A DNA stretch of 64,000 nucleotides from an uncultured Bacteroidota bacterium (lineage in GTDB: Bacteria > Bacteroidota > Bacteroidia > Bacteroidales > VadinHA17). Shown here piece by piece: positions 40,317 through 58,865 of the stretch (the first letter of the stretch is position 1; the number at the start of each line of letters is the position of its first letter). Both the position numbers and the translations under genes were made by a program. The notes below the pieces were generated by a model. The model had not been told where the DNA came from. It saw only the letters and a list, made by a program, of their open reading frames with translations, and did not search any database. The stretch spans positions 8,918 through 72,917 of the forward strand of contig CAIMVD010000375.1 in the NCBI GenBank assembly GCA_903844815.1, written 5' to 3'.

Positions 40317-43300
40317 GTGGAAACATTGAGTGAATTCCCAAAAGACGGTATCGGTGCTGAAGACCTTTCACTAACAGCTTCCAAAGCCCTGGATGCTGTC
40401 AGGCGCAAGGAAAACATGCTGAAAGCCATTGCTCTCTCAAGCAGTGAATTAATTTCCAATCCTGATATTTTTGATGCCATTGACAAATCGTTGCCAATCA
40501 TTGGGAAATCAGTCGATGTAGACAGGGTTTACCTTTTCCGGAACAGATTCAGCGAAGATGACAAAGCTGTCTCTTCACAGATTTTGGAATGGAACTCCGG
40601 AAGTTCCTTGCCTCAGATAGATAATCCGGAACTTCAGAATATGCAGTTGGAACACATAGAAGGCTTTCTGGATGAATTACTGCAAAAGCGATCTTTTATT
40701 GCCAAATTATCCGACTTGCCAGCAGGTTCAATTCTGAAAAACATTTTTGAAACAGAAGATGTAAAATCAATTCTTATCATCCCCATTTTCATCAGGGATT
40801 TATTCTGGGGTTACCTTGGATTTGATGATTGCAAATATGAACGGGCATGGGCCGATGATGAAATATCCATACTCAAGAACTTCAGTAACACTATTTCACT
40901 TGCTATTGACCGGGCTGGAATAACTGTTGATCTGGAAAACATGGCGCTTTTCCCCCAGGAGAACCCTGATCCTTTGTTCAGGTTGGATCTCAAGGGTAAC
41001 CTGATTCTCATGAATAAGGCGGCTGAAGCAATAAACATTTTCAGGTATAAAGGAATAGAATATTCATTCGAAGGATTTGCCGGAAAAATAGCATCGACTA
41101 TCTCAGATGATTGCACTCAGAAGGATTTTGAAGTAGAAGCGAATGGGAAATTTTACATGATCAGTTCGTTGCTTTCCCGTAATAAAATCCATATAAACAA
41201 TTATGCAAATAATATAACTGTTTTAAAAAGAACTCAGGCCCAGCTTGAACGGCTTTCGCTTGTTGCCAGCAATAACAGGCAAGGTGTTTATTTTAACGGC
41301 CCCGATTTTAAAATAAATTATGTCAACAGTGCATTGCTTGAATTAACAGGTTATGAAGAGGCGGAGATTCTGGGAAAAACCTCCCGGGAATTATTTTATG
41401 GTCCGTCTACTCATCCTGACAGCATCAAAAAGCTTGAATACAAATCCTTAATATCTGGCCAGACCAACGCAGATCTTATATTATACAGGAAGGACAGAAC
41501 GACCTTCTGGGCAAATGTCAAAGAACAACCCATTCTCAATAAAGACAACGAAACTGAGGAATTTTTTTCCATAATTGAAGATATCAGCGAGAAGAAACTA
41601 TCGGAGGAGAACCTGAAAAACTCCGAGAGCATGCTCGCCTCTCTTGTCGATAATCTGAAAGCAGGCATTCTCCTGGAAGCCGGAAACGGACAGCTTCTGA
41701 TCACTAACAATAGTTTCTGTTCCATGTTCAATATACCCAACAGTCCTTCCGCAATGGTGGGGTCAGATTGCCGGGAGCTTTTAGGAAGAATGGAATACCT
41801 TTTCAGTAATCCATTTGATGCTATAAGAAGGATCGACAAACTCACTTCCGAGAAAAAAATGGTACTCTCCGAAGAGGTCATTCTTGTTAACGGTCAGTAT
41901 TTCGAACGCGATTATATTCCACTTTCTCTTGGTGACACCTTTAAAGGCCATCTGTGGAAATATACCGATATAACTGAACGAATCTACCAGGAAAAGACAT
42001 TAAAGCAACAGGAGGAGAAATACAGGAACATCATTGCCAACATGAAGATGGCTTTGATTGAAACAGATAATGACGACATAATACACTATGTCAATCAGCA
42101 ATTCTGCGAAATGTCAGGTTACTCGGCTGAAGAGATTATAGGTAAAAAATCTGTTGACCTGCTACAGGCCGACGAGTCGAAGCTAATACTGACAGATAAA
42201 AATAAACTAAGGCTGGAAGGGATCTCAGATACCTACCTGATACAATTAAAAACAAAAAGCGGGGAAAAAAGGTGGTGGCTCACAAGCGGCGGGCCGAACT
42301 TCAATGACAAGGGAAAACTCATCGGAACGGTAGGCATTTCGGTCGACATTACTGAACAGAAGATACTGGAAGAGGAACTGCTTATTGCACGGGAAAAAGC
42401 GGAGCAGTCATCAAATGCAAAAGAAGCCTTCCTCTCGAACATGAGCCATGAAATCCGTACCCCCCTGAATGCAATTATTGGCATGATCAGGGAGATATCC
42501 CGGGAATCGCTTTCTGCAAAACAAAATGTATACGTTCAAAATGCGAGTCTGGCAAGCCACCATCTGCTCTCAATTGTAAACAACATTCTTGACATAACGA
42601 AGATTGAATCGGGCCAGATAAACCTCGATATGAGACCTTTCAACCTGAGCAGCCTGATTAAAGATGCTATTTCAATACTATCCGTATCAGCGCAGGAGAA
42701 AATGCTTAAACTTACCGCAGGTATTTCCCACATGCTGGCCCCTGCATATATCGGCGATTCAAACCGGATAAGCCAGATCCTTCTGAACACACTTTCAAAC
42801 GCAATAAAATTTACCGATCAGGGTTCAATAGTCCTTGAATGCATGGTGACAGGAACCGGAAATAATTTTCATGATCTCAGGCTGCAAGTTACCGATACGG
42901 GAATAGGTATTGATGAATCATTTTTAAGAAGTATTTTCGAGAAATTCTCAATGGGTGATTTCACCCCGGCAAGGAAACATGGGGGATCAGGTCTTGGAAT
43001 GTCAATAACCTACCAGCTTGTTCAATTGATGAACGGCACTATTGACGTAAAAAGCACTAAGGGCTCCGGAACGACATTTGTAATTGACCTCAGGCTTGAA
43101 ATAGGCAACGAGAAGGAGATTGACATCACAACCAATACTGAAATCTTCGATGGCCTGAGCAATAAAAAAATATTGCTGGTTGAAGATAATGACCTGAACC
43201 GCCTGGTAGCTACCAATTCGCTAAGCTATCACCATATGAAAGTTACTGAAGCGAAAAACGGAATTGAGGCTATTGAACGGTTAAAGGAAAACAGTTTCGA

Positions 43301-43913
43301 CCTGATCCTGATGGATCTGCAGATGCCTGAAATGGGGGGCCTCGATGCCACCAGGATTATCCGTGAGGAGATGAAACTTCTCACACCCATAATCGCTTTA
43401 ACGGCCAATGCCTTTAAAGCCGAAATTGAACGATGCATTAGTGCCGGAATGAACGATTATATTATCAAACCATTTGAAGAAAACACATTGGTTGGTGCTA
43501 TTCTTAAAAACATAATTATGTCAGAAAAAACATCCGGTGCCGGAAATAGCACAGAAATCCCTGAAGCAGCCCCAAAACTTTACGACCTTGAAGCGATCAT
43601 AAAGATGAGCAGGGGCAATAAGGAATTCATCAGTAAGATAGTAAGAATCTTTGTAGACGATACACCAATTGCTGTTGCCCAGATAAGAAAAGCCATGGAT
43701 GAAGGTGACTTTAATACACTCCGGTCGGTAGCCCACCGGATTAAACCTAACATTGAAAATTTCGGGGTAACCACTCTAAGTCAGGATATAAGATCCATTG
43801 AAACCCTTGCTGCTGAAGGAATAGCAACAAGTGAACTCGAAAGCAGGATCGTCAATCTGGAAAAAATCATAAAAACAGTTGTTGAAAGTCTTGCTGCCGA
43901 ATATTTTTCATGA
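40317..43913 (+). CDS. Hybrid sensor histidine kinase: GAF - multiple PAS - HisKA - HATPase_c - REC - HPt
   Basis: 1198 aa. GAF-like N-terminus (VDRVYLFRN...ILIIPIFIRDLFWGYLGFDD), several PAS modules, H-box SNMSHEIRTPLNAIIGM, G-box HGGSGLGMSITYQLVQLMNG, REC (ILLVEDNDLN...DLILMDLQMPEMGG...ALTANA...DYIIKPF), HPt (SVAHRIKPNIENFG). Start uncertain: GTG at 40317 or ATG at 40416. Confidence 0.88.
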   Translation: METLSEFPKDGIGAEDLSLTASKALDAVRRKENMLKAIALSSSELISNPDIFDAIDKSLPIIGKSVDVDRVYLFRNRFSEDDKAVSSQILEWNSGSSLPQIDNPELQNMQLEHIEGFLDELLQKRSFIAKLSDLPAGSILKNIFETEDVKSILIIPIFIRDLFWGYLGFDDCKYERAWADDEISILKNFSNTISLAIDRAGITVDLENMALFPQENPDPLFRLDLKGNLILMNKAAEAINIFRYKGIEYSFEGFAGKIASTISDDCTQKDFEVEANGKFYMISSLLSRNKIHINNYANNITVLKRTQAQLERLSLVASNNRQGVYFNGPDFKINYVNSALLELTGYEEAEILGKTSRELFYGPSTHPDSIKKLEYKSLISGQTNADLILYRKDRTTFWANVKEQPILNKDNETEEFFSIIEDISEKKLSEENLKNSESMLASLVDNLKAGILLEAGNGQLLITNNSFCSMFNIPNSPSAMVGSDCRELLGRMEYLFSNPFDAIRRIDKLTSEKKMVLSEEVILVNGQYFERDYIPLSLGDTFKGHLWKYTDITERIYQEKTLKQQEEKYRNIIANMKMALIETDNDDIIHYVNQQFCEMSGYSAEEIIGKKSVDLLQADESKLILTDKNKLRLEGISDTYLIQLKTKSGEKRWWLTSGGPNFNDKGKLIGTVGISVDITEQKILEEELLIAREKAEQSSNAKEAFLSNMSHEIRTPLNAIIGMIREISRESLSAKQNVYVQNASLASHHLLSIVNNILDITKIESGQINLDMRPFNLSSLIKDAISILSVSAQEKMLKLTAGISHMLAPAYIGDSNRISQILLNTLSNAIKFTDQGSIVLECMVTGTGNNFHDLRLQVTDTGIGIDESFLRSIFEKFSMGDFTPARKHGGSGLGMSITYQLVQLMNGTIDVKSTKGSGTTFVIDLRLEIGNEKEIDITTNTEIFDGLSNKKILLVEDNDLNRLVATNSLSYHHMKVTEAKNGIEAIERLKENSFDLILMDLQMPEMGGLDATRIIREEMKLLTPIIALTANAFKAEIERCISAGMNDYIIKPFEENTLVGAILKNIIMSEKTSGAGNSTEIPEAAPKLYDLEAIIKMSRGNKEFISKIVRIFVDDTPIAVAQIRKAMDEGDFNTLRSVAHRIKPNIENFGVTTLSQDIRSIETLAAEGIATSELESRIVNLEKIIKTVVESLAAEYFS

Positions 43914-44178
43914 CAATTAAATCCGGTTGGATATTATTATAGACCGTCCATGATACTTTATTTAAAATATTTTTAATGTCGAATATATCCATTAGACGAC
44001 AGATGAATCATTAGTAACGGGAATTTTATTAAATTTGCTGTGGTATATTTTTATTAATGAATGAATTAATTAATAATAGAAGTGGAACAAGGGGAACTGC
44101 TTTTGCTATTAACCTGAAAATTCTGATCTTTAAGTAACAAACATGATTTACAACACATAACTTAATTTAATTACGATT

Positions 44179-44565
44179 ATGAGGCATAAAATACTGGTCA
44201 TCGATGATGAACTGAGCATTCGCCTTCTTCTTGAAAATTTCCTTTCACAGGACTATGATGTAGTATGCGTAAGCGATGGTGTTCAGGCGCTTGAATGGCT
44301 CGAAGGAAACCTTCCCGATCTTATAATATGTGACATCCAGATGCCTAACATGGACGGGTACCAGTGTCTTGAAATGATTCGTCAGCGCGGTTATACAAAA
44401 CACACGCCAATTGTGATGCTTTCGGGCACTGAAGCCAGCAAGGAAAGAATTAAATGCTACAAGCTGGGGGCTCAGGATTACCTCACCAAACCATTTAACC
44501 CTGAAGAACTTGAAGAGATAATCAGGAAGAACCTTTTCCCTGTTCACTATGCTGTAAAATGGTGA
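44179..44565 (+). CDS. Stand-alone response-regulator receiver (CheY-like)
   Basis: 128 aa with all catalytic positions present: VIDDE, ICDIQMPNMDG, VMLSG, LTKPF. Confidence 0.88.
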   Translation: MRHKILVIDDELSIRLLLENFLSQDYDVVCVSDGVQALEWLEGNLPDLIICDIQMPNMDGYQCLEMIRQRGYTKHTPIVMLSGTEASKERIKCYKLGAQDYLTKPFNPEELEEIIRKNLFPVHYAVKW

Positions 44566-44620
44566 CCATCGCAGAAACCTGATAAAAACCAGTTCTATTC
44601 ATTCCGACAAAACGCCATTT

Positions 44621-45820
44621 ATGGAAGAATCAATAAAATTACTGTATATAGGCAGCTCATCCTTAAACAGGGAAATACTGAAAACCAGTTCAGGCATTTC
44701 GATGACTATTGCAGAGAATACCATGGATGCTGTAAATATTCTGATGTCAGCACAAATCATTGGGGCAATAATTTGCGAAGTTTACATCCCGGGGGGCAAT
44801 GGTTTCAGTATGCACGAGTGGCTACGCGAACGCTCCCGTTTCAATTCGATCCCTTTTATACTTGTTTCTGAAGAGTTTAAGGATGATCTGTTCAGAAAAT
44901 CATTTCTGTCCCGGATCGATGACTTTTTCGTAACCCCTTTGCCACCGGCCGGAAATCTTGAAGTAAGATTGAGATTCCTGCGTGATTTCAGGAAGAAGGC
45001 TGAAACGCATTCGTTAAAAGATGTCAGGGATCCTGTTTACCTCATGCCCCTATCAAAACGCATATTCGATGTAGCAGTCTCACTTGGAGCGATACTTGTC
45101 TTATCTCCCATAATGCTGCTGGTTATGCTTGCCATAAGGATGGAATCAAAAGGCAAAGTTTATTATATCTCGAAAAGAGTTGGAAGAAAACCTTTCGACT
45201 TTTACAAGCTGCGTTCTATGCGCACTGGTTCTGACATCGAATTAAATAAACTGGCTAAGGAAAAAAACCAGTACAGCGCATCAAAAAAAGCATCGGAAAT
45301 TGATTTTACCCTTCCCTGCCCTCGTTGCGCCGAATTGCCTGAGAGCGTTAATTGCTCTCCTGTTTTGCACATTGGTGATTACAATATCTGCGACTACTGG
45401 TATAATCATCAGAAGAAGGAAGTTGCAAAGTCAAAGTCGGCTTTCGTAAAGATCTCGAACGATCCCCGGATTACAAGGGTTGGAAAAATCATCAGGAATA
45501 CGAGTATTGATGAACTGCCTCAACTAATAAATGTCCTTAAGGGTGATATGTCGATCGTAGGCAACAGGCCGCTGCCGGTTTATGAGGCAGAACTCCTGAC
45601 TATTGACACAATGTCGAAGAGATTTCTGGCCCCTGCCGGAATAACCGGCCTGTGGCAGGTCGAATTAAGAGGACGGGGAGGAAACATGTCTGAAGAAGAA
45701 CGCAAAAGACTCGATAACGAATATGCCGACCACTTTGCGGGCGACAGTTATTCGTTCTGGTACGACATAAAGCTCATTTTAAGAACAGTACCTGCTCTCT
45801 TTCAAAAAGATTCCGTCTGA
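44621..45820 (+). CDS. Priming phosphoglycosyl transferase (bacterial sugar transferase family) fused to a degenerate receiver-like N-terminal domain
   Basis: 399 aa. C-terminal half: KRIFDVAVSLGAILVLSPIMLLVMLAI (re-entrant helix), YKLRSM, NDPRITRVGKIIRNTSIDELPQLINVLKGDMSIVGNRPLP, GITGLWQV. N-terminal ~125 aa is REC-shaped, but the acidic pair is absent (YIGSSS), the phospho-acceptor is E53 (IICEVYIPGGNG) and the conserved K is T (FFVTPL). Confidence 0.8.
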   Translation: MEESIKLLYIGSSSLNREILKTSSGISMTIAENTMDAVNILMSAQIIGAIICEVYIPGGNGFSMHEWLRERSRFNSIPFILVSEEFKDDLFRKSFLSRIDDFFVTPLPPAGNLEVRLRFLRDFRKKAETHSLKDVRDPVYLMPLSKRIFDVAVSLGAILVLSPIMLLVMLAIRMESKGKVYYISKRVGRKPFDFYKLRSMRTGSDIELNKLAKEKNQYSASKKASEIDFTLPCPRCAELPESVNCSPVLHIGDYNICDYWYNHQKKEVAKSKSAFVKISNDPRITRVGKIIRNTSIDELPQLINVLKGDMSIVGNRPLPVYEAELLTIDTMSKRFLAPAGITGLWQVELRGRGGNMSEEERKRLDNEYADHFAGDSYSFWYDIKLILRTVPALFQKDSV

Positions 45821-45848: not shown

Positions 45849-46604
45849 ATGAGATATTTCTTTGCCATTTCCCTGTTAGTCTGCCTGGAAGCCTGCTTCC
45901 CTAAAACGGCATACTCCCAGGAGAATAAAACAACTAATGTTCAGGCAGCCGATACAACATTCTTCCTTCCCCCGCTTGCTGTCCTTATTGACTCTGCCAT
46001 AGAAAACAGTGCAATGTTCAGGTATTACGAACAGGGAGCTCAGGCTAAAAAATACAATCTTTCGAATGAAAAGAGATCCTGGACCAGGAATTTCGGATTA
46101 CAGGCTGACGTGCGTTACGGAACATTCGATAACTTCTCTACCAACACTTCCGAGGGCCAGAGCCCTGCACTTTATGCCACCAGCACCACCCAGGCAAACT
46201 ATGGAATAGGAGCATATGTAAAACTTCCTATCTCCGATTTCCTGGGCCGAAAGAATAAGGTTATGCTCGCTAAAACAGAGGTGGATCAAGCCGAAACTAT
46301 GGCTGAAGTACAGCGCGACCAGATAAGGCAAACGGTAATAAAGCAATACAATGACCTTCTGATGAAACGTACCCTACTGAAGATAAAAGCCCGAAACCTT
46401 GAATCTTCCAGGACAAATTTACTTCTTGCAGATAAGGAATTCAAAAACGGCGTTATCTCACTTGGAACTTATTCCGGGTTGTCAGAGGCTGCCAGCAATT
46501 CTGAAATAAATTTCGAACAGGCTAAAGTCGATTTCAAAACAGCATACATGCTTCTTGAAGAATTGGCAGGGTTCATTTTCAGTTCAACAGAGAGTAACAG
46601 ATAA
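45849..46604 (+). CDS. Half-size TolC/OEP-like outer membrane protein (single repeat)
   Basis: 251 aa. Signal peptide, then one OEP-type unit: LAVLIDSAIENSAMFR..., a beta-hairpin region (GLQADVRYGTF...NYGIGAYVKLPI), long helices, and the typical ending F..G.IS...Y......S.INFEQAKVDFKTAYMLLEELAG. The next gene starts 2 nt after the stop, so there is no room for a second repeat. Confidence 0.5.
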   Translation: MRYFFAISLLVCLEACFPKTAYSQENKTTNVQAADTTFFLPPLAVLIDSAIENSAMFRYYEQGAQAKKYNLSNEKRSWTRNFGLQADVRYGTFDNFSTNTSEGQSPALYATSTTQANYGIGAYVKLPISDFLGRKNKVMLAKTEVDQAETMAEVQRDQIRQTVIKQYNDLLMKRTLLKIKARNLESSRTNLLLADKEFKNGVISLGTYSGLSEAASNSEINFEQAKVDFKTAYMLLEELAGFIFSSTESNR

Positions 46605-46606: not shown

Positions 46607-49114
46607 ATGAATATAATAGATTTTATAAGGATGCTTCGCAATAATCTGGTTTTACTGATTATTGTACCACTTATTATTGCCGGAATGGTAGCATATATGA
46701 CAAGGAAGCCGGACCTGAAGTTTTCATCTGAAACTACGCTTTATACCGGCATTGCAACAGGTTCCAGCGTCGATATGCAAAAATCGGTAAATTCCCTCAT
46801 ATCAAATACTGCCTTCGATAATCTGATCAATGTTATAAAGTCGCGTGCCACGCAGCAGGAAGTTGCCATCAGACTTCTTGCACAGCACCTCTTGCTTGAG
46901 AAGCCCTACCGGAGATATATTCTGCCTTCCTCATTCGCGGAATTGAAAAGGATAACACCGCAAAATATAAGAAATCTTGTGGTAAAAGACAGTACCTCAA
47001 GGATAAGTATCTCAGAAAAGACTGAAATTATCCCGGGAAATGCCGCCGATTCTACTCTGGAGAATGAAACCTTTTCCTTCAGGTCCTTCGCAGACTCAAC
47101 CATGCCTGCTTGGCTGCCTCCTGCAATAAATATGGAAGCATACGAACTGACTGTTAAGAACTTAACTGAATACATGCATAGCAGCGACACAAATTTCGTT
47201 TACAAACTTCTTAACTACTCAAATCCTCACTACTCCCTAAAGGCAATATCATCGCTGAAGGTACAAAGGATCGCTTTCAGCGACCTTGTGAAGCTATCCT
47301 ACGAATCAAACGACCCGGGTATTTGTCAGCAGACCCTTGCTTTGTTTACCGATGCCTGCATTGAGAACTACAGGATATTAAAGGAAAACCGATCAGATGT
47401 TGTGATAAAGTATTTTGAGTTCCAGCTGAAGCAGGCTGCTGAACGGCTCGACCACGCAGAAGACAAGCTGCTCAAATTCAACCTCGACAATAACATTATC
47501 AACTATTATGAGCAGAGTAAGGCTATTGCAGGTGTGAAAGAGCAATTGGACCTTGATTATAATAACAAGAAAGTAAGCCTGGCTGGTATTCTGGCAGCCA
47601 TTATCAGGCTCGAGGAAAAACTTAAAAACCAGGAACAGATTCAGCTTAAAAGCTCAACGATTATCGAACTCCGCGATCAGTTGGGTGCATTGAGTTATAG
47701 TATTGCATATGCTGAAAACAGAGATACCATCGGCGAAAAAGGTATAAAGAATCTTGCGGAACTGAAGAACCAGTCTGAAATTATTAAGAAAGAGATCACT
47801 GATGCTGTAGGCGAATTATATAAATTCGGAAATACTACCGACGGTCTGCCCATGAGTTCAGTCCTCAACGATTGGATAAGCAATGTTATTGCTGCTGAAA
47901 ACCTGAAGGCAGGTCTGGTGGTAATGGCCGAAAAAATAAAGGACTTTCAGAAACAATATGGAATTTATGCTCCGGCTGGTGCCAACCTCAAAAGAATAGA
48001 AAGGGAAATATCGGTTTCGGAACAGGAGTATCTTGAACTTCTTCACGAACTGAATCAGGCGAAACTGAAAATGCAGGACAATGAACTCTCGTCAAATATT
48101 AAGACTATTGATCCTCCCTATTACCCGCTCTCGCCCATGCCCAACAATCGCAAACTTCTGATAATGGTTGGAGCTGTCGTGGGGTTCGTTATAGTAATGT
48201 TTGCAGTTCTGTTCCTCGAATACTTTGATGAAACACTTAAAAGTCAGAAAAAAGCCGCGAGAATACTTAAATTACCTTCTCTCGGAATTGTCCCCAAGAT
48301 CCTGTTTGACATCCAGGGCACGAATTTCGTCTTCATTACCAATCGCTTGATTGAGATAATAATACAAAATACAGAACTTATTTTCAAATCAAACAAGGTT
48401 GATAAAGTACCAAAAATCCTGTTGTTCTTCAGCTGCCTCAGAGGTGAAGGAAAATCAGTAGTTATTGGCAACCTGGCTCAAAAGCTGAAGAATCAGGGAA
48501 AGCGAATTCTGGTTCTGAACTACTCACGTGAATCACTCCTTCTGAATGAGAAATCACAAATCGGATACGATGATTCCGCATCTCCTTCAAAGCATGACGA
48601 GACAGTCAGGAAAAAACCAAGGAAGTCAATGGTTCGATTGCTGCTGGGATATCCCGATACCCGGGTTGATAACGATAGTCCCTTCCTTGAAAAACATTCA
48701 AGCTATCTTGGAAGTGAAGAATATATCGTTTACGATGTCAATAAGCAATTTCAATCACTGAAAAGCTATCAGGGAATACTGCAACAAAACGGAAAAGAAC
48801 TAAGTAACAATCCTGATTTTGTTTTAATTGAATTGCCTCCGATTCTTAGCTGTCCCTATCCTGTTTCCCTGCTTTCAGAGGCTGATATTCCGGTAATGGT
48901 TTGCCGCTCAAACAGGAATTGGACCGAAGCTGATCAGCTGGCTCTCGATATTTTTGCAAAATTAACCGATAAAGAAGTGCATTTCATCCTGAACGGTGTA
49001 CAGCTGCAGGTTATTGAATCGGTACTGGGCGACCTGCCGAAAAAAAGAAGCAGGATCCGGCGTCTCATAAAGAAATTATTCCGTTTTCATTTCGCTTCAC
49101 GATACGAAATATAG
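46607..49114 (+). CDS. Polysaccharide co-polymerase (Wzz/GumC-type) with C-terminal P-loop, Wzc-like
   Basis: 835 aa. N-terminal TM + Wzz-like motif (LVLLIIVPLIIAGMVAYMTRKPDLKFSSETTLY), a ~450-aa coiled-coil periplasmic region, a second TM (LLIMVGAVVGFVIVMFAVLFLEYF), and a cytoplasmic domain with P-loop SCLRGEGKSVVIGNLA. Confidence 0.75.
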   Translation: MNIIDFIRMLRNNLVLLIIVPLIIAGMVAYMTRKPDLKFSSETTLYTGIATGSSVDMQKSVNSLISNTAFDNLINVIKSRATQQEVAIRLLAQHLLLEKPYRRYILPSSFAELKRITPQNIRNLVVKDSTSRISISEKTEIIPGNAADSTLENETFSFRSFADSTMPAWLPPAINMEAYELTVKNLTEYMHSSDTNFVYKLLNYSNPHYSLKAISSLKVQRIAFSDLVKLSYESNDPGICQQTLALFTDACIENYRILKENRSDVVIKYFEFQLKQAAERLDHAEDKLLKFNLDNNIINYYEQSKAIAGVKEQLDLDYNNKKVSLAGILAAIIRLEEKLKNQEQIQLKSSTIIELRDQLGALSYSIAYAENRDTIGEKGIKNLAELKNQSEIIKKEITDAVGELYKFGNTTDGLPMSSVLNDWISNVIAAENLKAGLVVMAEKIKDFQKQYGIYAPAGANLKRIEREISVSEQEYLELLHELNQAKLKMQDNELSSNIKTIDPPYYPLSPMPNNRKLLIMVGAVVGFVIVMFAVLFLEYFDETLKSQKKAARILKLPSLGIVPKILFDIQGTNFVFITNRLIEIIIQNTELIFKSNKVDKVPKILLFFSCLRGEGKSVVIGNLAQKLKNQGKRILVLNYSRESLLLNEKSQIGYDDSASPSKHDETVRKKPRKSMVRLLLGYPDTRVDNDSPFLEKHSSYLGSEEYIVYDVNKQFQSLKSYQGILQQNGKELSNNPDFVLIELPPILSCPYPVSLLSEADIPVMVCRSNRNWTEADQLALDIFAKLTDKEVHFILNGVQLQVIESVLGDLPKKRSRIRRLIKKLFRFHFASRYEI

Positions 49115-49150: not shown

Positions 49151-50647
49151 ATGCTTACCAGGCAAAACCCTTTCGAAGTCGTAACAGGATCCGATAAACT
49201 GACAAGGACAGTTTACCTGCTGCTACTACTTTGCCTGATTGTCATTTCCTCCTGGGTAATCAGCAATCTGGAAATACTTGGAGCATTTGCATTAATAATT
49301 CTGCCCTTTGTATTTATTTATCTCTATTATCTTTTTGTTTACCCGATTATAGGGATCTATACTGCAATGGCACTCGGATTCACCTTGCTGGGACTGGCAA
49401 GGTATGCACCCATACCAATGCTTGCAGTCGTTCTTGACGTCATGCTTATCCTGACCTTTATAGCTCTCTTCTTTAACAGGTTCAGGGAACGAATCGATTT
49501 CAGGCCTGCCGGGCGAGACGTTACCCTGCTTGCAGTTATCTGGGCCTGCTACTTCATATTCGAGTTTTTCAACCCCGAAGTTGTAAGCAAGGGGGCCTGG
49601 TTTGCCGGCAGAGGTGTTGCCCTGTACATGCTCATGCTGGTTCCGTTGACACTCCTTCTGATAGACACAAACAAAAAACTTGACATTTTTTTCCTCATCT
49701 GGGGAAGCTTTTCAATACTGGTCACCCTTAAGGGCTTAATGCAACATTTCTGGGGTGTTGATTCGGCTGAGAGACAATGGCTCAATGAAGGCAATGCAGC
49801 TACCCATATAATTTTTGGAAAACTCAGGGTCTTTTCGTTCCTGAGCGATGCGGGACAGTTCGGTGCGAATCAGGGATTTTCGGCTGTAGTGGCCATAATC
49901 ATTTCATCAGTGCAGAAAAGCCGCCGGATGAAATACTTCTATTATCTCGTGGCCATTTTGGGACTTTACGGAATTATTATTTCGGGTACCAGAGGAGCCA
50001 TTAGTATCCCGTTCGCCGGGCTTGCGGCTTTTTTCGTCCTCAGAAAAGACAAGATGGTGCTTATTAGCGGATTTGTTATGATAGCCCTCTTTTTTGTTTT
50101 CTTCAAGTACACTTTCATCGGACAGGGGATTTCAGAAATAAGGAGGATGCGATCGGCATTTGACCCTGACAATCCATCGCTTCAGGTCAGGCTCGAGAAT
50201 CAAAAAAAACTTAAAACCTACCTGGCTACGCGTCCTTTCGGTGGTGGAATTGCACATGCAGGCGGCAAAGCAAAAAAATTTGCGCCTAAGGCTTTTTTGT
50301 CTAGTGTCCCTCCCGACAGCTGGTATGTAGTGATTTGGGCGGAACAGGGGATTGTAGGTCTGACACTGCATTTGCTGATTCTTTTTTACATTGTCATAAA
50401 AGGCTCATTCCTTGTTATGTTCAGGATAAGTGATCCTATAGTGAAAACGAAGATGTCGGCCCTGGTTGGAGGAATGTTTGGGATAATGGTGGCCTCATAT
50501 GGCAACATGGTTCTGGGGCAAATGCCCACCGGGGTACTTATGTACATGTCGATGGCTCTGATGCTCAGCTCGGATGTATTTGATGCTGATGCTTTAAAGG
50601 AAAAAATGGAACTGTCACCAGTCAGGGAAACTCATATAATTATATGA
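49151..50647 (+). CDS. O-antigen polymerase/ligase family membrane protein (Wzy-like)
   Basis: 498 aa and polytopic (more than 10 hydrophobic segments). Contains the ISGTRGAISIPFAG-type motif of the Wzy_C/O-antigen ligase family, and a periplasmic loop with RPFGGGIAHAGG. Confidence 0.7.
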   Translation: MLTRQNPFEVVTGSDKLTRTVYLLLLLCLIVISSWVISNLEILGAFALIILPFVFIYLYYLFVYPIIGIYTAMALGFTLLGLARYAPIPMLAVVLDVMLILTFIALFFNRFRERIDFRPAGRDVTLLAVIWACYFIFEFFNPEVVSKGAWFAGRGVALYMLMLVPLTLLLIDTNKKLDIFFLIWGSFSILVTLKGLMQHFWGVDSAERQWLNEGNAATHIIFGKLRVFSFLSDAGQFGANQGFSAVVAIIISSVQKSRRMKYFYYLVAILGLYGIIISGTRGAISIPFAGLAAFFVLRKDKMVLISGFVMIALFFVFFKYTFIGQGISEIRRMRSAFDPDNPSLQVRLENQKKLKTYLATRPFGGGIAHAGGKAKKFAPKAFLSSVPPDSWYVVIWAEQGIVGLTLHLLILFYIVIKGSFLVMFRISDPIVKTKMSALVGGMFGIMVASYGNMVLGQMPTGVLMYMSMALMLSSDVFDADALKEKMELSPVRETHIII

Positions 50648-52182
50648 AAATAAATCAGTTGAAGGCAGGAGCCGTATTGTCTTACGCAATTTTGGGACTG
50701 AATAATGTGATAGGGTTGCTTTATACCCCATATATGCTCAGAATGATGGGACAGAGCGAATATGGACTGTATTCTCTTGTTGCCTCGGTTGTGGCATACC
50801 TAACAATTTTGGACTTGGGATTCGGTAATGCAATAATAAGATATACTGCGAAATTCAGGGCAGAGGGAAAAACGGAGGAACAGTATTCCATGTTCGGGAT
50901 GTTCATTGCACTCTACTCAGTGATAGCCCTTGTAGCTTTCGCCGCCGGTATGGCACTGTACATGAACGTTGAAACTATATTTGGCCATACAATGTCGGCT
51001 GACGAACTGGCAAAAGCCCACGTTTTAATGCTGCTGATGGTTTTTAACCTGGCATTTACCTTCCCCTTCAGCATTTTTGGCTCAATTATTTCGGCTTATG
51101 AAGATTTCGTTTTCCAAAAGGTGGTACAGATAGTGAGGATCCTACTCAATACCGTCATAATGGTAGTGCTCCTTAAACTTGGTTACAGGGCTATCGGGAT
51201 GGTTGTACTGATCACTATATTTAATGTGGTTACCCAATTAATAAACTTCTGGTACTGCAAATACAGGATCAGGATAAAGATTCACTTCAACAAATTCAAC
51301 TGGGGCTTTCTTAAGGAGATATTTATGTATTCTTTCTACATATTCCTGAATGCAATCATTGACCGTATTTACTGGAGTACAGGACAACTTGTACTCGGAG
51401 CATTCGTCAGCACCGTAGCTGTTGCAGTTTTCGCCGTGGCGATCCAGCTTGAGCAGATGTACATGGCCTTTTCCACAGCCATTTCCGGGGTCTTCCTTCC
51501 CAGGGTTACTGCCATGACAACAAACTCCCAGTCCGACAGGGCCATATCCGACCTTTTCATCCGTACCGGCCGGCTGCAGTTCATAGTAATGGCTTTCATA
51601 CTTACCGGCTTCATCGTCTTTGGAAAGCAATTCATAATAATTTGGGCCGGTAAAAATTATTCCGATGTCTACCTGATTGCCCTGCTTTTCTTTATCCCGC
51701 TTACTATTCCATTGATCCAGAATCTTGGAATAACCATTCTTCAGGCACGTAATAAGGTGAAATTCAGGGCACTTCTTTACCTTGGCATAGCCCTGCTGAG
51801 CCTGGGATTACAGCTGCTGCTTGTCAAAAAATACCAGGGCATCGGTTGTGCCATCGCAATCTGCATAGCATTGGTAATAGGACATATAATAATAATGAAC
51901 ATTTACTATTTTAAATATCAGGCGATAAACATTCCTATATTCTGGAAGGAGATCGGGAAGATGTCAGTTACTCCCCTGATACTGGGAAGTGCTGCATATT
52001 TCGCACTGAAATTCATCCCTATTGACAATATCTTAAAACTCGGGGCCGGGGTTATCCTGTTTTCGCTTGTTTATATACCCGTTTTCTGGTTTGCAGGTAT
52101 GAATCAATCGGAACGTGACCTGGTAAATGAGCCTGTCAGACACCTTCTGACTAAATTTAAAAAGAACCCTAACGCAATTTAA
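50644..52182 (+). CDS. Oligosaccharide flippase (Wzx, MOP superfamily)
   Basis: 512 aa and polytopic. The N-terminus has the typical LKAGAVLSYAILGLNNVIGLLYTPYMLRMMGQSEYGLYSLV. ATGA overlap with the upstream gene. Confidence 0.8.
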   Translation: MKINQLKAGAVLSYAILGLNNVIGLLYTPYMLRMMGQSEYGLYSLVASVVAYLTILDLGFGNAIIRYTAKFRAEGKTEEQYSMFGMFIALYSVIALVAFAAGMALYMNVETIFGHTMSADELAKAHVLMLLMVFNLAFTFPFSIFGSIISAYEDFVFQKVVQIVRILLNTVIMVVLLKLGYRAIGMVVLITIFNVVTQLINFWYCKYRIRIKIHFNKFNWGFLKEIFMYSFYIFLNAIIDRIYWSTGQLVLGAFVSTVAVAVFAVAIQLEQMYMAFSTAISGVFLPRVTAMTTNSQSDRAISDLFIRTGRLQFIVMAFILTGFIVFGKQFIIIWAGKNYSDVYLIALLFFIPLTIPLIQNLGITILQARNKVKFRALLYLGIALLSLGLQLLLVKKYQGIGCAIAICIALVIGHIIIMNIYYFKYQAINIPIFWKEIGKMSVTPLILGSAAYFALKFIPIDNILKLGAGVILFSLVYIPVFWFAGMNQSERDLVNEPVRHLLTKFKKNPNAI

Positions 52183-52202
52183 AACGACTAATTACTGAAG
52201 GA

Positions 52203-53198
52203 GTGAAAAGCAAACTAAAAAAACTTATACCAAGGAGAATACTCTTCCTCTATTATCTCCACAGTGCAAAAAAAGCTGTTTTGCCAGATATCAGCAGAAG
52301 GGTTCATGACAAGGTTTACAACGACTCTGAAGCGGAAAAGGTAAAGCGTGACCTGACACTGGCCTATCACATAGTTGAAAAGGGTTTGACAATGCCAGTC
52401 CCGCGCCCCGGTTTCGGTAAAAATGTGGTTTTGGGCCTGGCTGATACAATATTCCGCTATAGGAATCTCAACCTTCCGCATGATGATCTTGAGTTTCGGC
52501 AGTCAGTTTCAGTATTGAGGGAGTACTTGTCATTTCACAAGGACCTTAATTTCAATCTCGACAGCGATGTTTTGGAAAAACTGAATCATGTTATGAAGGG
52601 ATTGGGCCCTATTGAAGGCCAGAGCCAGATCATGTTTACCAGGGAGGAGTATTTCAGGGATAAGCACGAGCCCTTTGATAAATTCTGCATGTCGAGGTAT
52701 TCGGTAAGAAATTATACCGATCAGGAGGTCCCTCTTCAGGTCCTTTACGACTGCATCGACCTTGCACAAAAGTCACCCTCATTTTGCAACAGGCAACCAA
52801 CGCGCGTTCATATTGTCAAATCACCAGGGAAGAAAAACAAGATACTTGAAATACAAAATGGAAACAGGGGATTTGGACATCTTGCCGAAACATTGCTGGT
52901 AATAAGTTCTGTAATCTCTACTACAAAGGATATACATGAGAGGAACGAAAACCACCTTAACGGGGGAATTTTCATAATGTCATTGCTGAATGCTCTCCAT
53001 TTTCACGGGATTGGAGCCTGCTCCCTGAACTGGGGAGTATCGAACGACAAGGACGTTAAGATGCGCGAGATTCTGAATATTCCCGAAAATGAGGTGATAC
53101 TTATGATAATCTCATGCGGTTATATTCCCGAACAGATATCTGTGGCTGCTTCACCAAGGAAGAAAGCACGGGAGATAACCACTGAACACTTGAGTTGA
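52203..53198 (+). CDS. Nitroreductase-family protein with a ~150-aa N-terminal extension
   Basis: 331 aa. The C-terminal ~180 aa read MSRYSVRNYTDQEVPLQVLYDCIDLAQKSPSFCNRQPTRVHIV...GACSLNW, typical of the nitroreductase fold. GTG start at 52203; there is no upstream ATG in frame. Confidence 0.7.
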   Translation: MKSKLKKLIPRRILFLYYLHSAKKAVLPDISRRVHDKVYNDSEAEKVKRDLTLAYHIVEKGLTMPVPRPGFGKNVVLGLADTIFRYRNLNLPHDDLEFRQSVSVLREYLSFHKDLNFNLDSDVLEKLNHVMKGLGPIEGQSQIMFTREEYFRDKHEPFDKFCMSRYSVRNYTDQEVPLQVLYDCIDLAQKSPSFCNRQPTRVHIVKSPGKKNKILEIQNGNRGFGHLAETLLVISSVISTTKDIHERNENHLNGGIFIMSLLNALHFHGIGACSLNWGVSNDKDVKMREILNIPENEVILMIISCGYIPEQISVAASPRKKAREITTEHLS

Positions 53199-53245
53199 TT
53201 TATTTGTTTGGAAATTAAACGCTGACTAAACCCGCGACTGATGTT

Positions 53246-54388
53246 ATGAAAATAGGTATTGTAACCCTGCCATTCAATTCAAACTACGGAGGATTGCTTC
53301 AGGCATTTGCACTGCAATCGTCTTTGCGCAATATGGGCCATGAACCAACAACTGTCTATCGCCGGAATCCAATAATGCCCCTGCATATTCAAATTATCTC
53401 GTCGGCAAACAGGCTTGCTAAAAGCATCCTCAACCATAAGATGGGGGTCATCCGGTCATGGGCGACGGCTGAAGAAGAACTCATTATTGACCAGCATACC
53501 AACCGTTTCATCAGTGAAAATATCAGCACAACCGAAATGCTGAAATCCGAAAGAGACTTTTCAGGTATGAATGACAAGGGGTTTGAAGCCTGGGTTGTCG
53601 GTAGCGACCAGGTTTGGAGGCCAAAGTACGCCCCTTCCCTCTCAAATCACTTCCTGGGCTTTGTAACCGACTCTTTTAAAGCAAAGCGCGTCTCTTACGC
53701 AGCCTCTTTCGGTGTGGATCAGTGGGAATTTTCTCCTGTCCAAACGGGAAAATGCAGGAAATTGCTCTTAAAGTTTGATGCCGTTTCGGTTCGTGAAGAT
53801 TCGGGAGTAAAACTGTGCGGGGAAAATCTCGGAGTCGAAGCAAAACAGGTCCTCGACCCTACTATGCTGCTGCCAAAGGAAGAATACATCAGGCTGGTCG
53901 AAAAGGACAGCATCGCTGCATGCGACGGAACTCTTCTCACATACGTTCTCGATAAGGCTCCTGACAAAATTGATTTTATAAGAAAAGTGGCAGAAGAAAA
54001 AGGACTTAGAGTGATATCAATAATGCCTAAGTCGCTCTTCAGGGATGCAGGCAGAAAAAGGATTGATGATTGTATTTACCCGCCTGTTACAGCATGGCTG
54101 AGAGGCTTCATGGATGCAGAGTGCGTAATTACAGATTCTTATCACGGGATGGTGTTTGCCATAATATTCAACAAACCCTTTCTGGCACTTGGTAACTCTA
54201 AACGCGGAATGGCAAGGTTCTCCTCATTGCTGAAACTATTCGGCCTGGAAGAGCGCATGGCTCTTTCTACAGAAGAAAACCTTATGGAAAAACTCAATGC
54301 GCCGATCGATTTCAGCAAAGTAAATGAGATTTTAATTGTAAAAAGGCATGAATCATTGGCATTTTTGGAAAACTCTTTAAAAACTTAA
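53246..54388 (+). CDS. Polysaccharide pyruvyl transferase family protein
   Basis: 380 aa. MKIGIVTLPFNSNYGGLLQAFALQ..., VGSDQVWRP, SVRE.SG, VITDSYHGMVFAIIFNKPF are typical of the PS_pyruv_trans (CsaB/WcaK-like) family. Confidence 0.75.
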   Translation: MKIGIVTLPFNSNYGGLLQAFALQSSLRNMGHEPTTVYRRNPIMPLHIQIISSANRLAKSILNHKMGVIRSWATAEEELIIDQHTNRFISENISTTEMLKSERDFSGMNDKGFEAWVVGSDQVWRPKYAPSLSNHFLGFVTDSFKAKRVSYAASFGVDQWEFSPVQTGKCRKLLLKFDAVSVREDSGVKLCGENLGVEAKQVLDPTMLLPKEEYIRLVEKDSIAACDGTLLTYVLDKAPDKIDFIRKVAEEKGLRVISIMPKSLFRDAGRKRIDDCIYPPVTAWLRGFMDAECVITDSYHGMVFAIIFNKPFLALGNSKRGMARFSSLLKLFGLEERMALSTEENLMEKLNAPIDFSKVNEILIVKRHESLAFLENSLKT

Positions 54389-54414
54389 ATTGCAATTTAA
54401 TATAAAACAATTAT

Positions 54415-55359
54415 ATGTATTACAGGAATATCTCCGATCTGAATGAGATTATACTCAGGCGACTGAGTATCCTTCCCCGCGATTTCGACCTTATTGTTGG
54501 AGTCCCCCGAAGCGGTATGCTCCCGGCCAATCTGTTGGCTCTCTACCTTAACAAGCCTTATACTGATATCCATTCGTTTATCAACGGGCATATATATAAA
54601 GCGGGAGCCAGAAGCCAGTTCTTCGAATCAGATGAATTTAAAAAGGTGCTTATTGTCGACGACAGTATCGCCTCAGGATCGGCAATGGCAGAGGTAAAGG
54701 AAAGCCTTTTGCCTATGGCTGAAAAATTTTCATTCAGTTTCTGCGCAATTTATGTTATTCCGGGGAAAGAAAAAATGGTTGACTATTTTTTCGAGACAGT
54801 ACCCCTGCCCAGGTATTTCCAGTGGAACATAATGAACCATACTTCACTGGAAAAGGCCTGCTTCGACATCGACGGGGTATTATGCGTTGATCCTACAGAA
54901 GAACAGAATGATGACGGCCCCATTTATCTTGATTTTATTAAGAATGTGCCCCCGCTATTTATACCCGGGGCCAAAATCGGGACAATCGTCAGCTCAAGGC
55001 TTGAGAAATACCGGAAAGAGACCGAAGAGTGGCTACAGGCAAATAATGTCAGATACAACGACCTCATCCTGCTCGATCTTCCCGACAAGGAAGCCCGTCA
55101 AAAAGCCAACAGTCATGCTTCGCACAAGGCAAAAACGTACCTGTCGAAAGCTTATGTTCTTTTTGTTGAAAGTTCCCTTTCACAGGCTATTGAGATTAAC
55201 AGGATAACCGGCAAACCAGTATTGTGTACCGGGAATTTCCAAATGATTTTCGACTCCGAGTCGGTTATTTACAATATCAGAAGCGGTAAGCATTTCCCTT
55301 TCCTGCGGAAATTCGCCCTGAAGGTAAGAGACAGGATAAGAGCCGGAAAGAAAGCTTAA
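54415..55359 (+). CDS. Phosphoribosyltransferase-domain protein fused to a HAD-like domain
   Basis: 314 aa. N-terminus: LIVGVPRSGMLPANLLA and PRPP-loop VLIVDDSIASGSAM. C-terminus: CFDIDGVLC (D.DG HAD motif I) followed by a Rossmann-like segment. Confidence 0.6.
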   Translation: MYYRNISDLNEIILRRLSILPRDFDLIVGVPRSGMLPANLLALYLNKPYTDIHSFINGHIYKAGARSQFFESDEFKKVLIVDDSIASGSAMAEVKESLLPMAEKFSFSFCAIYVIPGKEKMVDYFFETVPLPRYFQWNIMNHTSLEKACFDIDGVLCVDPTEEQNDDGPIYLDFIKNVPPLFIPGAKIGTIVSSRLEKYRKETEEWLQANNVRYNDLILLDLPDKEARQKANSHASHKAKTYLSKAYVLFVESSLSQAIEINRITGKPVLCTGNFQMIFDSESVIYNIRSGKHFPFLRKFALKVRDRIRAGKKA

Positions 55360-55368
55360 AAAATAAAA

Positions 55369-56577
55369 ATGAGCATAGACAAAAACATACTTTGCATTTC
55401 AAACACAGCCTGGGAAGGGTTTTATACTAAATCTACCGTCCAGTTAATGTCTCTTCTTGCCAGGCAGAATAAGATCTTGTTCGTCGAATATCCGTATACT
55501 ATAAAGGATCTTTTCTTTGCCATCCTTGGAAAAGCAAGAGCCCCTGTGATGCGGATGACTGGTCTTGCCCGGAGGCTTGAAGTGAAGGAGCCTTCGCCCG
55601 GCGTATTGGTTCATCATCTGGTGGTTCCTCCGGTTTTGCCGGTTGAATTCATAAAGAATGAAAAGCTGTACGATCTTCTTATGAAAATAAATGCCTCCAT
55701 TTATTCCCGATCGGTAAAACGTGCCCTCAGGAAGCTGAAAATGGATGACCTTGTATGCATAAATGCCTATAATTCAATTTACGGCAACAACCTCAAGGGA
55801 ATGTTCGGAGAAAAGCTTCTTATCTTTTACTGTTATGATGGGCCCAACATAGGACGGTACGGGAAAAAGGCAGTAACTTCCGACCAGGATTTTGCCTGCA
55901 AAGCCGACAGCGTAATTGTAACATCGGAGTTCCTGTCAGGCACTTTGCGCCAATATAATACGAATATTAATGTGGTTAAGAACGGAGTCGATTTCGAAAA
56001 CTTCCACAAACATGCTAAAAAGGATACAGGCGACGTCTCGCGAAGAAAGAAGGCTGGCTACATAGGAAGCCTTGACCAAAGGTTCGATATAGATACCGTT
56101 GAATATGCCGTCAGTAAATTGCCGCACTATGATTTCGAGTTTACAGGGGAACTGATGAACAAAACAGTTGAACAGCGTCTCTCAAAATATAACAATGTCA
56201 GATTCTGTCCACCCGTTCAGGCAGGAGAGGTTCCTGCTTTGCTCAATAAATGCGACGCAGGACTGATTCCCTACCTGTGCACAGAGTATACCAGGAATGT
56301 TTATCCACTTAAAATAAATGAATACCTGTCGGTGGGGGTTCCTGTTGTCCTGACCTCCTTTGCCGATCTTCCGGAATTTAAGCAGATTGTGAGTTTTACT
56401 TCGGGAAAGGAAGATTTTTGCCAAGCCATAGTAAATGAGATCGAATCTGATTCGCCGGAAAGGATCGGTCAGAGAATACTGTTTGCAGAAAAAAACTCAT
56501 GGGAAAGTCGCGCTGAACAATTAAATAAGATTATTGAAGAACAACTTGGAAAAAAATTGAATAGTACCCGAAATTAA
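55369..56577 (+). CDS. GT-B fold glycosyltransferase (GT4-like)
   Basis: 402 aa. The C-terminal half (GYIGSLDQRFDIDTV...LIPYLCTEYTRNVYPLKINEYLSVGVPVVLT) has the GT-B nucleotide-sugar binding layout. Confidence 0.65.
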   Translation: MSIDKNILCISNTAWEGFYTKSTVQLMSLLARQNKILFVEYPYTIKDLFFAILGKARAPVMRMTGLARRLEVKEPSPGVLVHHLVVPPVLPVEFIKNEKLYDLLMKINASIYSRSVKRALRKLKMDDLVCINAYNSIYGNNLKGMFGEKLLIFYCYDGPNIGRYGKKAVTSDQDFACKADSVIVTSEFLSGTLRQYNTNINVVKNGVDFENFHKHAKKDTGDVSRRKKAGYIGSLDQRFDIDTVEYAVSKLPHYDFEFTGELMNKTVEQRLSKYNNVRFCPPVQAGEVPALLNKCDAGLIPYLCTEYTRNVYPLKINEYLSVGVPVVLTSFADLPEFKQIVSFTSGKEDFCQAIVNEIESDSPERIGQRILFAEKNSWESRAEQLNKIIEEQLGKKLNSTRN

Positions 56578-56656
56578 ATACCTGACAGAAACACGACAAT
56601 CAAGAAAAAAGATATAATTTACAGTACAAACCAACTTTAAGCATACCAACTTATAT

Positions 56657-57850: not shown

Positions 57851-57852
57851 CA

Positions 57853-58854: not shown

Positions 58855-58865
58855 CAGAAATACAA

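Follow-up and report, generated by a model that had tools for sequence, protein, structure and literature searches.

The stretch analysed here is a 64,000-nucleotide window (contig CAIMVD010000375.1, positions 8,918 to 72,917) from an uncultured Bacteroidota bacterium of the Bacteroidales lineage VadinHA17. Between positions 40317 and 45820 its plus strand carries three co-directional genes, whose coordinates and strand were given exactly by an initial annotation made from the sequence. They encode a hybrid sensor histidine kinase, a single-domain response regulator (hereafter the receiver, or REC) and a monotopic phosphoglycosyl transferase (PGT) that begins with a degenerate receiver domain. 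The PGT is the head of a Wzx/Wzy polysaccharide cluster of approximately 17 kb that reaches approximately 62.9 kb. The annotation had proposed that the receiver gates the transferase directly, and we find this plausible.

Relay and transferase genes of the locus

The kinase (40317..43913, 1198 aa) consists, in a Pfam scan, of a GAF domain (40500-40907), several PAS domains, HisKA (42417-42614), HATPase_c (42753-43100), an internal REC domain (43170-43502) and a C-terminal histidine phosphotransfer (HPt) domain (43638-43847). The REC-HPt ending described in the initial annotation is borne out by a Response_reg match of 98.5 bits and an Hpt match of 30.3 bits (cutoff 24.6), and the relay residues are all in place: H711 of the H-box (42447-42449), E956/D957, D1000 (43314-43316), T1029, K1051 and the HPt H1140 (43734-43736). 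The protein thereby combines the H-box histidine, HATPase_c domain, receiver aspartate and HPt histidine of multistep phosphorelay kinases of the ArcB/BarA/TorS type. Its best NCBIfam matches are BarA, LuxQ, ArcB and TorS, all far under the equivalog cutoffs, which rules out orthology to any named kinase. Because no transmembrane segment was found in it (maximal Kyte-Doolittle 19-residue mean of 1.52), we consider it a cytoplasmic protein that senses a cytoplasmic signal. The GTG start at 40317 is uncertain. An alternative in-frame ATG (M34) lies at 40416 and orthologues align from residue ~28 onward or later, so the real kinase may be approximately 33 aa shorter than 1198. An AT-rich spacer of 265 nt (43914..44178) separates kinase and receiver; its plus strand holds no terminator-like hairpin. 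Within it, TAAATTTG (~44042-44049) fits what we take to be the Bacteroidota -7 motif, TAnnTTTG, and is a candidate promoter. A sigma-70 promoter scan gave 22 sites against 18.5 expected, with a consensus that is unsuited to Bacteroidota promoters.

The receiver (44179..44565, plus strand, 128 aa) matches Response_reg (PF00072) at 111.3 bits against a cutoff of 30.2. Its active site is intact, as the initial annotation had described, with D9, D10, D52, S82, Y101 and K104 aligning to CheY D12, D13, D57, T87, Y106 and K109. The acceptor aspartate that the annotation numbered D53 is present but is D52 (44332-44334), one residue earlier. Among 38 orthologues, D52, K104, P105 and a serine or threonine at position 82 are kept in all and D10 in 36. 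The receiver is also the most conserved protein of the cluster: between the window and four related loci (L081-L084) its identity is 82-84%, compared with 70% for the PGT, 57% for the kinase, 53-58% for the co-polymerase and 43-49% for the OEP-like protein encoded further downstream. Such conservation would be expected of a small protein that has to match at least two partners.

The first 125 residues of the transferase (44621..44995, plus strand) have a receiver fold. In Pfam they score 27.3 bits against Response_reg, slightly under the cutoff, while the N-domain of one homologue (L004) reaches 30.9 bits and many homologues carry a precomputed PF00072 match. AlphaFold2 models residues 1-127 with a predicted local distance difference test score of 81-93 and (beta-alpha)5 topology; in the model of the whole PGT the catalytic domain is poorly modelled and the overall predicted TM-score is 0.38. 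The top Foldseek matches of the N-domain in the Protein Data Bank (PDB) are all receivers, with CheY, BeF3-PhoB, BeF3-ArcA and VicR at TM-scores of 0.77-0.84 and root mean square deviations of 2.1-2.7 A over approximately 122-126 residues. Similarly, a profile built from 20 N-domain sequences matched 251 receiver sequences in the PDB (best E = 1.3e-14), with PleD among the best (E = 2e-13), and profile-profile comparison (hhalign) with the partner receivers gave a probability of 99.5% (E = 3.8e-23). A non-receiver fold, which the initial annotation had named as an outcome that would speak against its proposal, is thus contradicted by structure prediction, structure search and profile searches alike. 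A phmmer search of 1.84 billion representative sequences, many of them fragments, placed the domain at the N terminus of proteins of approximately 400 aa.

The active site of this domain is degenerate in the way the annotation had described. By alignment, the acidic pair is replaced by G11/S12, the acceptor aspartate by E53 (codon 44777-44779) and the conserved lysine by T105, while S83 at the threonine position and the proline following the lysine position are kept. In 120 homologues of 65-91% identity, G11 is found in 119, E53 in 117 and a lysine at position 105 in none, on account of which we hold that the dead active site is maintained by selection rather than decaying. Across the classes of Bacteroidota, glycine at the first acidic position and the absence of the lysine are near-universal. 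Glutamate stands at the acceptor position in Bacteroidales, the window's clade included; many members of the Flavobacteriia, the Cytophagia and further groups have aspartate or asparagine there, and these lineages still have neither the acidic pair nor the lysine. We therefore rejected Glu53 as a universal phosphomimic, and given this variation it is not a general key to the function of the domain. As judged from these alignments, the domain is a long-standing pseudo-receiver as that term is defined in PMC12632262. Beyond the beta-core, its most conserved positions, by a measure taken without correction for phylogeny, are D101, R116 and F119 on beta5/alpha5. In one Polaribacter metagenome-assembled genome (MAG) (L024:10001-11052) the pseudo-receiver PGT is apparently disrupted, with residues ~122-208 missing and the match in two pieces, and the receiver upstream is intact (67% identity); either the gene is a pseudogene or the assembly is in error.

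The whole PGT (44621..45820, plus strand, 399 aa) matches Bac_transf (PF02397) at 175.4 bits (cutoff 27) and TIGR03025 at 208 bits, under the subfamily cutoff of 295. It contains one hydrophobic segment only (Kyte-Doolittle 19-residue mean of 2.56 at position 151), modelled by AlphaFold2 as a helix from 144 to 174. Together with the basic K146-R147 and an S162-P163 break, this segment forms a re-entrant membrane helix (residues ~143-175; 45047..45145), which is followed by the Bac_transf catalytic domain (45146..45820) with its D297-E298 dyad (45509-45514). All three motifs are invariant among 66 homologues, and we take them to be those of PglC-type monotopic PGTs (monoPGTs). The predicted activity is transfer of a sugar 1-phosphate to polyprenyl phosphate. 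The pseudo-receiver lies directly N-terminal to the re-entrant helix, apparently in the place where large monoPGTs have a domain of unknown function (DUF).

An insert of approximately 65 aa (45227-45424, PGT residues ~203-268) splits the Bac_transf match. It carries four cysteines, in C233-P-R-C236, C245 and C257-D-Y-W (codons at 45317, 45326, 45353 and 45389), of which C236, C245 and C257 are invariant in the 66 homologues and C233 is present in at least 90%. It looks like a small zinc-ribbon-like module within the catalytic domain. The insert is present in Flavobacteriia and Bacteroidia and absent from Cytophagia and other members, in which the Bac_transf match is unsplit.

Receiver and transferase pairing across the Bacteroidota

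The genomic context of the two genes was surveyed from both sides. A transferase-based genome scan returned 80 loci, and a receiver-based metagenome scan returned 80 loci with receivers of 59-86% identity, 64 of which had at least 500 nt of downstream sequence and were counted. An upstream receiver was called when it was stand-alone, on the same strand and matched with E < 1e-8. At 42 loci of the transferase-based scan, the N terminus of the PGT is extended by 137-188 aa; the classes represented are Flavobacteriia, Bacteroidia, Sphingobacteriia, Cytophagia and Saprospiria, along with one contig labelled Beijerinckiaceae. The receiver lies directly upstream of the pseudo-receiver PGT in 41 of these 42 loci, the last (L044) having a weaker match. 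By comparison, it accompanies none of the PGTs at 36 loci with other architectures, three of them in Bacteroidota, where the PGT has no such extension, and 33 in other phyla, where it is mostly a large monoPGT. A census of this kind had been suggested in the initial annotation as a check on its proposal, and the outcome is in line with it. Two Chloroflexota loci (L069 and L074) were considered as receiver fusions and ruled out, being large monoPGTs of CoA_binding_3 and Bac_transf domains that match part of the N-region.

The receiver and PGT genes are usually 0-60 nt apart, with an overlap of 6-7 nt at several loci. Counted reciprocally from the receiver, a fused PGT starts within 400 nt downstream in 56 of the 64 loci. 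The remaining eight (L107, L108, L109, L112, L114, L115, L126 and L136) hold receiver orthologues of 72-77% identity that adjoin no pseudo-receiver PGT. In two of them (L109:5001-7799 and L115:5001-9187; 75-76% identity) the receiver is followed by a glycosyltransferase of family 2 (GT2), a GT2 of the Glyco_tranf_2_3 type and a GT1, with no PGT, and in some others it faces a convergent UXS gene. A Glyco_tranf_2_3 GT2 of approximately 390-430 aa is common to L109 and L115, to Cytophagia, where it follows the PGT, and to the window (56657-57850). The arrangement of receiver and PGT is not due to chance and is conserved across classes of Bacteroidota; the pairing is strong, not absolute. In two Cytophagia loci (L036 and L037) the pair is kept with a gap of 2-5 nt among GT2 neighbours and with no adjacent OEP, polysaccharide co-polymerase (PCP) or Wzy module. 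Since the pair survives there, the receiver follows the transferase and not the export machinery. Some carriers of the module belong to genera that can be cultivated, Flavobacterium, Polaribacter, Algibacter and Marivirga among them.

The input side of the module is more variable. Five contigs of the window's clade (PGTs 70-82% identical) carry an orthologous hybrid kinase approximately 90 nt upstream of the receiver. On L081-L084 the alignment with the window kinase runs through REC-HPt to residue 1195-1197, and the contig designated P0003 has the same layout; one of the five also has the divergent pair of a UDP-glucose 6-dehydrogenase-like (UGD) gene and a UXS-like gene that is found in the window. 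In Flavobacteriia there is no adjacent hybrid kinase, and the usual co-directional order is UGD-UXS-(HPt)-REC-PGT. When the HPt region by itself was used as the query, an HPt was found directly upstream of the receiver in 33 of 104 loci, as a stand-alone gene in 28 and fused to a kinase in 5. The stand-alone genes encode approximately 110 aa, lie 3-30 nt upstream of the receiver and are common among Flavobacteriia-type loci (for example L002:8282-8611, L138:4648-4980 and L139:4646-4978). Their products are homologous to the HPt domain of the window kinase (26-41% identity), and all seven small open reading frames that were tested matched Pfam Hpt, five of them above cutoff. HPt domains are few per genome. 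Because an HPt, split or fused, recurs upstream of the receiver in spite of this, there is good evidence that the receiver is the probable terminal acceptor of an HPt relay, and the kinase in the window is the local version of a variable input.

Proposed control of the transferase and alternative readings

We propose that the locus encodes a multistep phosphorelay with an enzymatic rather than a transcriptional output. The GAF/PAS kinase would autophosphorylate on H711, and the phosphoryl group would move on to D1000 of the same protein, from there to the HPt residue H1140 and finally to D52 of the receiver; the HPt-to-receiver transfer and the contact of the receiver with the pseudo-receiver are what we infer here. 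The phosphorylated receiver (REC~P) would act on the adjacent monotopic PGT by direct protein-protein contact, with the pseudo-receiver, which would not be phosphorylatable, as the docking and transducing module. It would thereby set the rate of sugar-1-phosphate transfer to polyprenyl phosphate, the first membrane-committed step of Wzx/Wzy exopolysaccharide synthesis. Activation is assumed as the sign of the effect, by analogy. An action of REC~P on the PGT is favoured because the pairing is near-obligate, the enzyme carries a conserved dead receiver, precedents exist and the window offers no transcriptional output: no DNA-binding output domain was found in any of its open reading frames of at least 110 aa, which agrees with the initial annotation that no DNA-binding response regulator is present. 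For the relay from H711 through D1000 and H1140 to D52, followed by direct action on the pseudo-receiver PGT, we consider the chances evenly balanced. The broader reading is held a little more tentatively, somewhat short of an even chance: that HPt, intact receiver and pseudo-receiver PGT form a widespread switch in Bacteroidota, in which REC~P heterodimerises with the dead receiver and turns on exopolysaccharide synthesis.

The closest precedent on the side of the enzyme is found in Myxococcus xanthus, where EpsW~P stimulates the PGT EpsZ post-translationally and directly (Schwabe et al., mBio 2025, PMC12802240); omics, proximity labelling and heterologous activity showed this, and a complex of 2:2 stoichiometry was modelled. 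This system, as well as the earlier cataloguing of receiver fusions to small monoPGTs, overturns the statement of the initial annotation that no characterised example was known. Like the mechanism proposed here, EpsW/EpsZ achieves post-translational control by direct contact and with no transcription factor, and here too a single-domain response regulator co-occurs with a PGT. The two enzymes differ, however. EpsZ is a large monoPGT with a transmembrane bundle, a cytoplasmic DUF of the CoA_binding_3 type that lacks the beta-hairpin, and a catalytic domain, whereas the core of the window PGT is that of a small monoPGT, has a single re-entrant helix and is preceded by a pseudo-receiver. It is not an EpsZ orthologue, since it scores 136 bits against an NF041877 cutoff of 800, lacks CoA_binding_3 and has one hydrophobic segment. 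EpsW receives its input from the Dif chemosensory kinase; here a hybrid kinase with GAF and PAS domains, or an HPt protein, takes that place. For EpsZ, the proposed mechanism is that dimerisation through the DUF is promoted, which does not necessarily hold for the window PGT. By analogy, the system in the window may nevertheless work similarly.

Fusions of a receiver to a small monoPGT were catalogued by O'Toole, Imperiali and Allen (PNAS 2021, as cited in PMC12802240), and as described there this class, a receiver-type domain followed by Bac_transf, has the same architecture as the window PGT. Its mechanism was left open because small monoPGTs act as monomers (PMC12802240). The account of these fusions in PMC12802240 does not state pseudo-receiver status, an obligate intact receiver or an HPt gene, and a later monoPGT survey (PMC11257628) makes no mention of receivers. 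Our literature search found no characterised example from Bacteroidota and no pseudo-receiver fused to a polysaccharide enzyme. The 'sugar transferase' FP1244, listed as up-regulated in a study of F. psychrophilum biofilms, was considered, and no link to the pseudo-receiver PGT family could be made. Control of a small monoPGT after translation is also reported for CapM of Staphylococcus aureus, through tyrosine phosphorylation (as cited in PMC12802240). As cited, that control is covalent and exerted by a bacterial tyrosine kinase (BY-kinase) rather than by a two-component receiver, and the Wzc-like protein in the window has no C-terminal tyrosine cluster.

In its logic, the proposed mechanism comes closest to PleD of Caulobacter crescentus, which consists of a receiver, a pseudo-receiver and a GGDEF domain and in which phosphorylation of the true receiver rearranges the receiver/pseudo-receiver pair and switches the enzyme on (PMC12632262). 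PleD has its three domains on one chain and is a soluble diguanylate cyclase, whereas the receiver here is separate and the enzyme is a membrane PGT. The window system would be the PleD arrangement split over two polypeptides and, at the same time, the small-monoPGT counterpart of EpsW/EpsZ. A functional heterodimer of a receiver and a degenerate receiver is known from BldM-WhiI of Streptomyces, and a phosphorylation-dependent version of such a pair has been proposed (PMC12632262). Unlike the window system, both BldM and WhiI bind DNA, their output is transcriptional and phosphorylation is not the trigger.

Several observations weigh against the reading that REC~P acts directly on the pseudo-receiver PGT. 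The co-occurrence counts are drawn from related genomes, so that the events are not independent. The eight receiver orthologues that adjoin GT2/GT1 or UXS genes in place of the PGT suggest that the receiver may act in trans or on a different target. No HPt was detected beside the receiver in 71 of 104 loci, and outside the window's clade the receiver has no hybrid kinase next to it. The receiver could also be fed by three other kinases of the window (17828-19741, 24808-26682 and 26714-28756). Small monoPGTs are reportedly monomeric (PMC12802240), and promotion of a dimer in the manner of EpsZ may not transfer to them. A mirror-tree comparison gave a partial correlation of 0.57 between receiver and pseudo-receiver given the catalytic core, against 0.39 between receiver and core given the pseudo-receiver, without correction for phylogeny; this and the per-element conservation point the way the proposal would predict but are weak evidence, and with D101, R116 and F119 they hint weakly at a contact through the alpha4-beta5-alpha5 face.

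If the receiver is the terminal acceptor, its target might instead be another protein of the cluster, such as the membrane GT2 (Glyco_tranf_2_3), the Wzc-like protein, Wzy or Wzx, or an unlinked effector, and its adjacency to the PGT would reflect shared operon membership only. The eight loci without a fused PGT speak for this, among them L109 and L115 with their receiver, two GT2s (one of the Glyco_tranf_2_3 type) and GT1, as does the like GT2 found after the PGT in Cytophagia and at 56657-57850 in the window. It leaves unexplained, however, why the PGT carries a conserved dead receiver domain, and it fits poorly with a receiver that immediately precedes the PGT at 41 of 42 loci in one scan and at 56 of 64 in the other, often with a gap below 10 nt or an overlap, that never accompanies PGTs without the N-domain and that stays beside the PGT in Cytophagia although the adjacency of OEP, PCP and Wzy is lost. 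We regard it as unlikely, though the least unlikely of the alternatives.

Somewhat less probable still is that the pseudo-receiver works as an autonomous, constitutive module, locked in an active-like form by Glu53 and the lost acidic pair, and serving homodimerisation or scaffolding of the PGT through a PhoB-like alpha4-beta5-alpha5 face, with the receiver acting elsewhere or competing with self-association. Both the Foldseek search and the profile search of the PDB turned up a constitutively active form of PhoB, D10A/D53E (2jb9; TM-score 0.79-0.81), in which, as in the window domain, one residue of the acidic pair is lost and the acceptor aspartate is replaced by glutamate; that protein is an engineered transcription-factor mutant with the lysine kept, whereas the window domain is natural and has threonine there. 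D101 and R116 of the pseudo-receiver are near-invariant, and we take them to correspond to D101/R115 of PhoB, the salt-bridge residues of its active dimer. Glutamate is also the commonest substitution at the aspartate position of pseudo-receivers and a possible phosphomimetic, but T105 replaces the lysine that a phosphomimetic glutamate is thought to engage (PMC12632262), the aspartate or asparagine of many Flavobacteriia and Cytophagia means that a glutamate phosphomimic is not general, and the near-obligate partner receiver is left without explanation. Finally, the receiver could be a phosphate sink or buffer that drains the kinase or HPt and tunes an unlinked response regulator, with no output of its own. 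Single-domain receivers do act as sinks in chemotaxis-like and branched relays, and several kinases are encoded in the window. A sink would be expected to travel with its kinase, yet the kinase varies or is absent while the receiver stays beside the PGT, and the conservation of the receiver, the highest in the cluster, suggests constraint from more than one partner; we hold this last reading to be improbable.

Initiating PGTs compete for scarce undecaprenyl phosphate, so that control at this step decides which surface glycan is made. EpsW/EpsZ (2025) is the only characterised case in which a two-component system controls a PGT at the protein level, and the authors of that work expressly left the regulation of receiver-fused small monoPGTs open. 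According to a 2025 review, how bacterial pseudo-receivers are switched on and off is still a mystery (PMC12632262). The module described here, compact with its three to four genes and spread through the phylum, bears on both questions. Relative to the literature searched, what appears to be new is that the fused domain is always a pseudo-receiver, that a dedicated intact receiver, and in many cases an HPt gene, accompanies it, and that the arrangement is spread across the Bacteroidota. We see in the locus a well-defined, readily testable system rather than a principle that is new in kind, and the strict pairing, together with the occurrence of the HPt in split and fused form, leads to clear biochemical and genetic predictions. 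If true, the broader reading, with heterodimerisation of REC~P and the dead receiver, would define for the first time how a cognate true receiver switches a bacterial pseudo-receiver, and would add to EpsW/EpsZ a second, mechanistically distinct way in which two-component systems control a PGT. It would also help to account for the rapid regulation, independent of transcription, of biofilm and capsule polymers in Bacteroidota from the environment and in fish pathogens of the phylum.

The polysaccharide cluster and other genes of the window

Downstream of the PGT, the core of a Wzx/Wzy pathway is present, with Bac_transf, Polysacc_synt and Wzy_C proteins found and the PCP weakly supported. A secreted OEP/TolC-like protein of 251 aa (45849..46604, plus strand) is conserved directly after the PGT, between it and the Wzc-like protein in most loci; it has approximately half the length of TolC and a signal-peptide-like N terminus. 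Because no Wza-type Poly_export exporter matched among the cluster proteins, this protein, standing in its place, may be an unusual outer-membrane export component. The PCP/Wzc-like protein that follows (46607..49114, plus strand, 835 aa) has slightly sub-cutoff matches to GNVR (25.2 bits against 27.7) and to AAA_31, the latter weak and accompanied by a P-loop G-E-G-K-S, and TIGR03007 is also sub-cutoff at 63 bits. The tyrosine cluster at the C terminus of canonical BY-kinases was not found in it, its tail holding one tyrosine only.

The remainder of the cluster (49151..62877, plus strand) begins with the Wzy polymerase (49151-50647; Wzy_C) and the Wzx flippase (50644-52182; Polysacc_synt). 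After Wzx come nitroreductase-like, pyruvyl transferase, phosphoribosyltransferase-like (Pribosyltran), GT1 and GT2 (Glyco_tranf_2_3) genes, and further genes of the cluster encode two Acyl_transf_3 proteins, GT4/GT1, GT2 and GT8. The Pribosyltran protein (54415-55359, approximately 314 aa) is conserved in the clusters of the window's clade (L081:20489-21200, L082:14796-15507 and the P0003 contig); in the window its gene is preceded by the nitroreductase-like and pyruvyl transferase genes, a content that is unusual for an exopolysaccharide cluster.

On the minus strand, divergent from the kinase, lie the UGD gene (38109-39434) and the UXS-like epimerase/decarboxylase gene (37109-38047), which by their predicted products point only to the supply of UDP-glucuronic acid and UDP-xylose. 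The intergenic region between UGD and the kinase, 880 nt and AT-rich, contains two perfect G/C-rich palindromes at 39632-39712, CCCCCCAAGGGGGG (39653-39666) and CCCCCCTTGGGGGG (39678-39691), both unique within the window (0.02 expected by chance). An Rfam search of the intergenic regions, the palindromes included, returned spurious sub-threshold microRNA matches only.

Further signalling proteins are encoded nearby: a TPR-HATPase kinase (17828-19741), a protein combining a YfiR/HmsC-like part with a SpoIIE (PP2C) phosphatase (19870-21813) and, on the minus strand, a REC-PAS-HisKA-HATPase kinase (24808-26682) and a PocR-PAS-HisKA-HATPase kinase (26714-28756). Two additional PAS kinases lie upstream of the orthologous hybrid kinase in L083 and L084, and together the extra kinases hint at multi-kinase input. 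Placement of the window in the Bacteroidota is supported by type IX secretion system sorting domains, an SprB-repeat adhesin and best homologues in Bacteroidales/Prolixibacteraceae MAGs. A 4856-aa open reading frame (920-15490, minus strand) with SprB repeats, PKD-like domains and a CHU_C type IX secretion signal encodes a gliding-motility-type or adhesin cell-surface protein, and a similar giant Ig/PKD protein is encoded near the L081 cluster.

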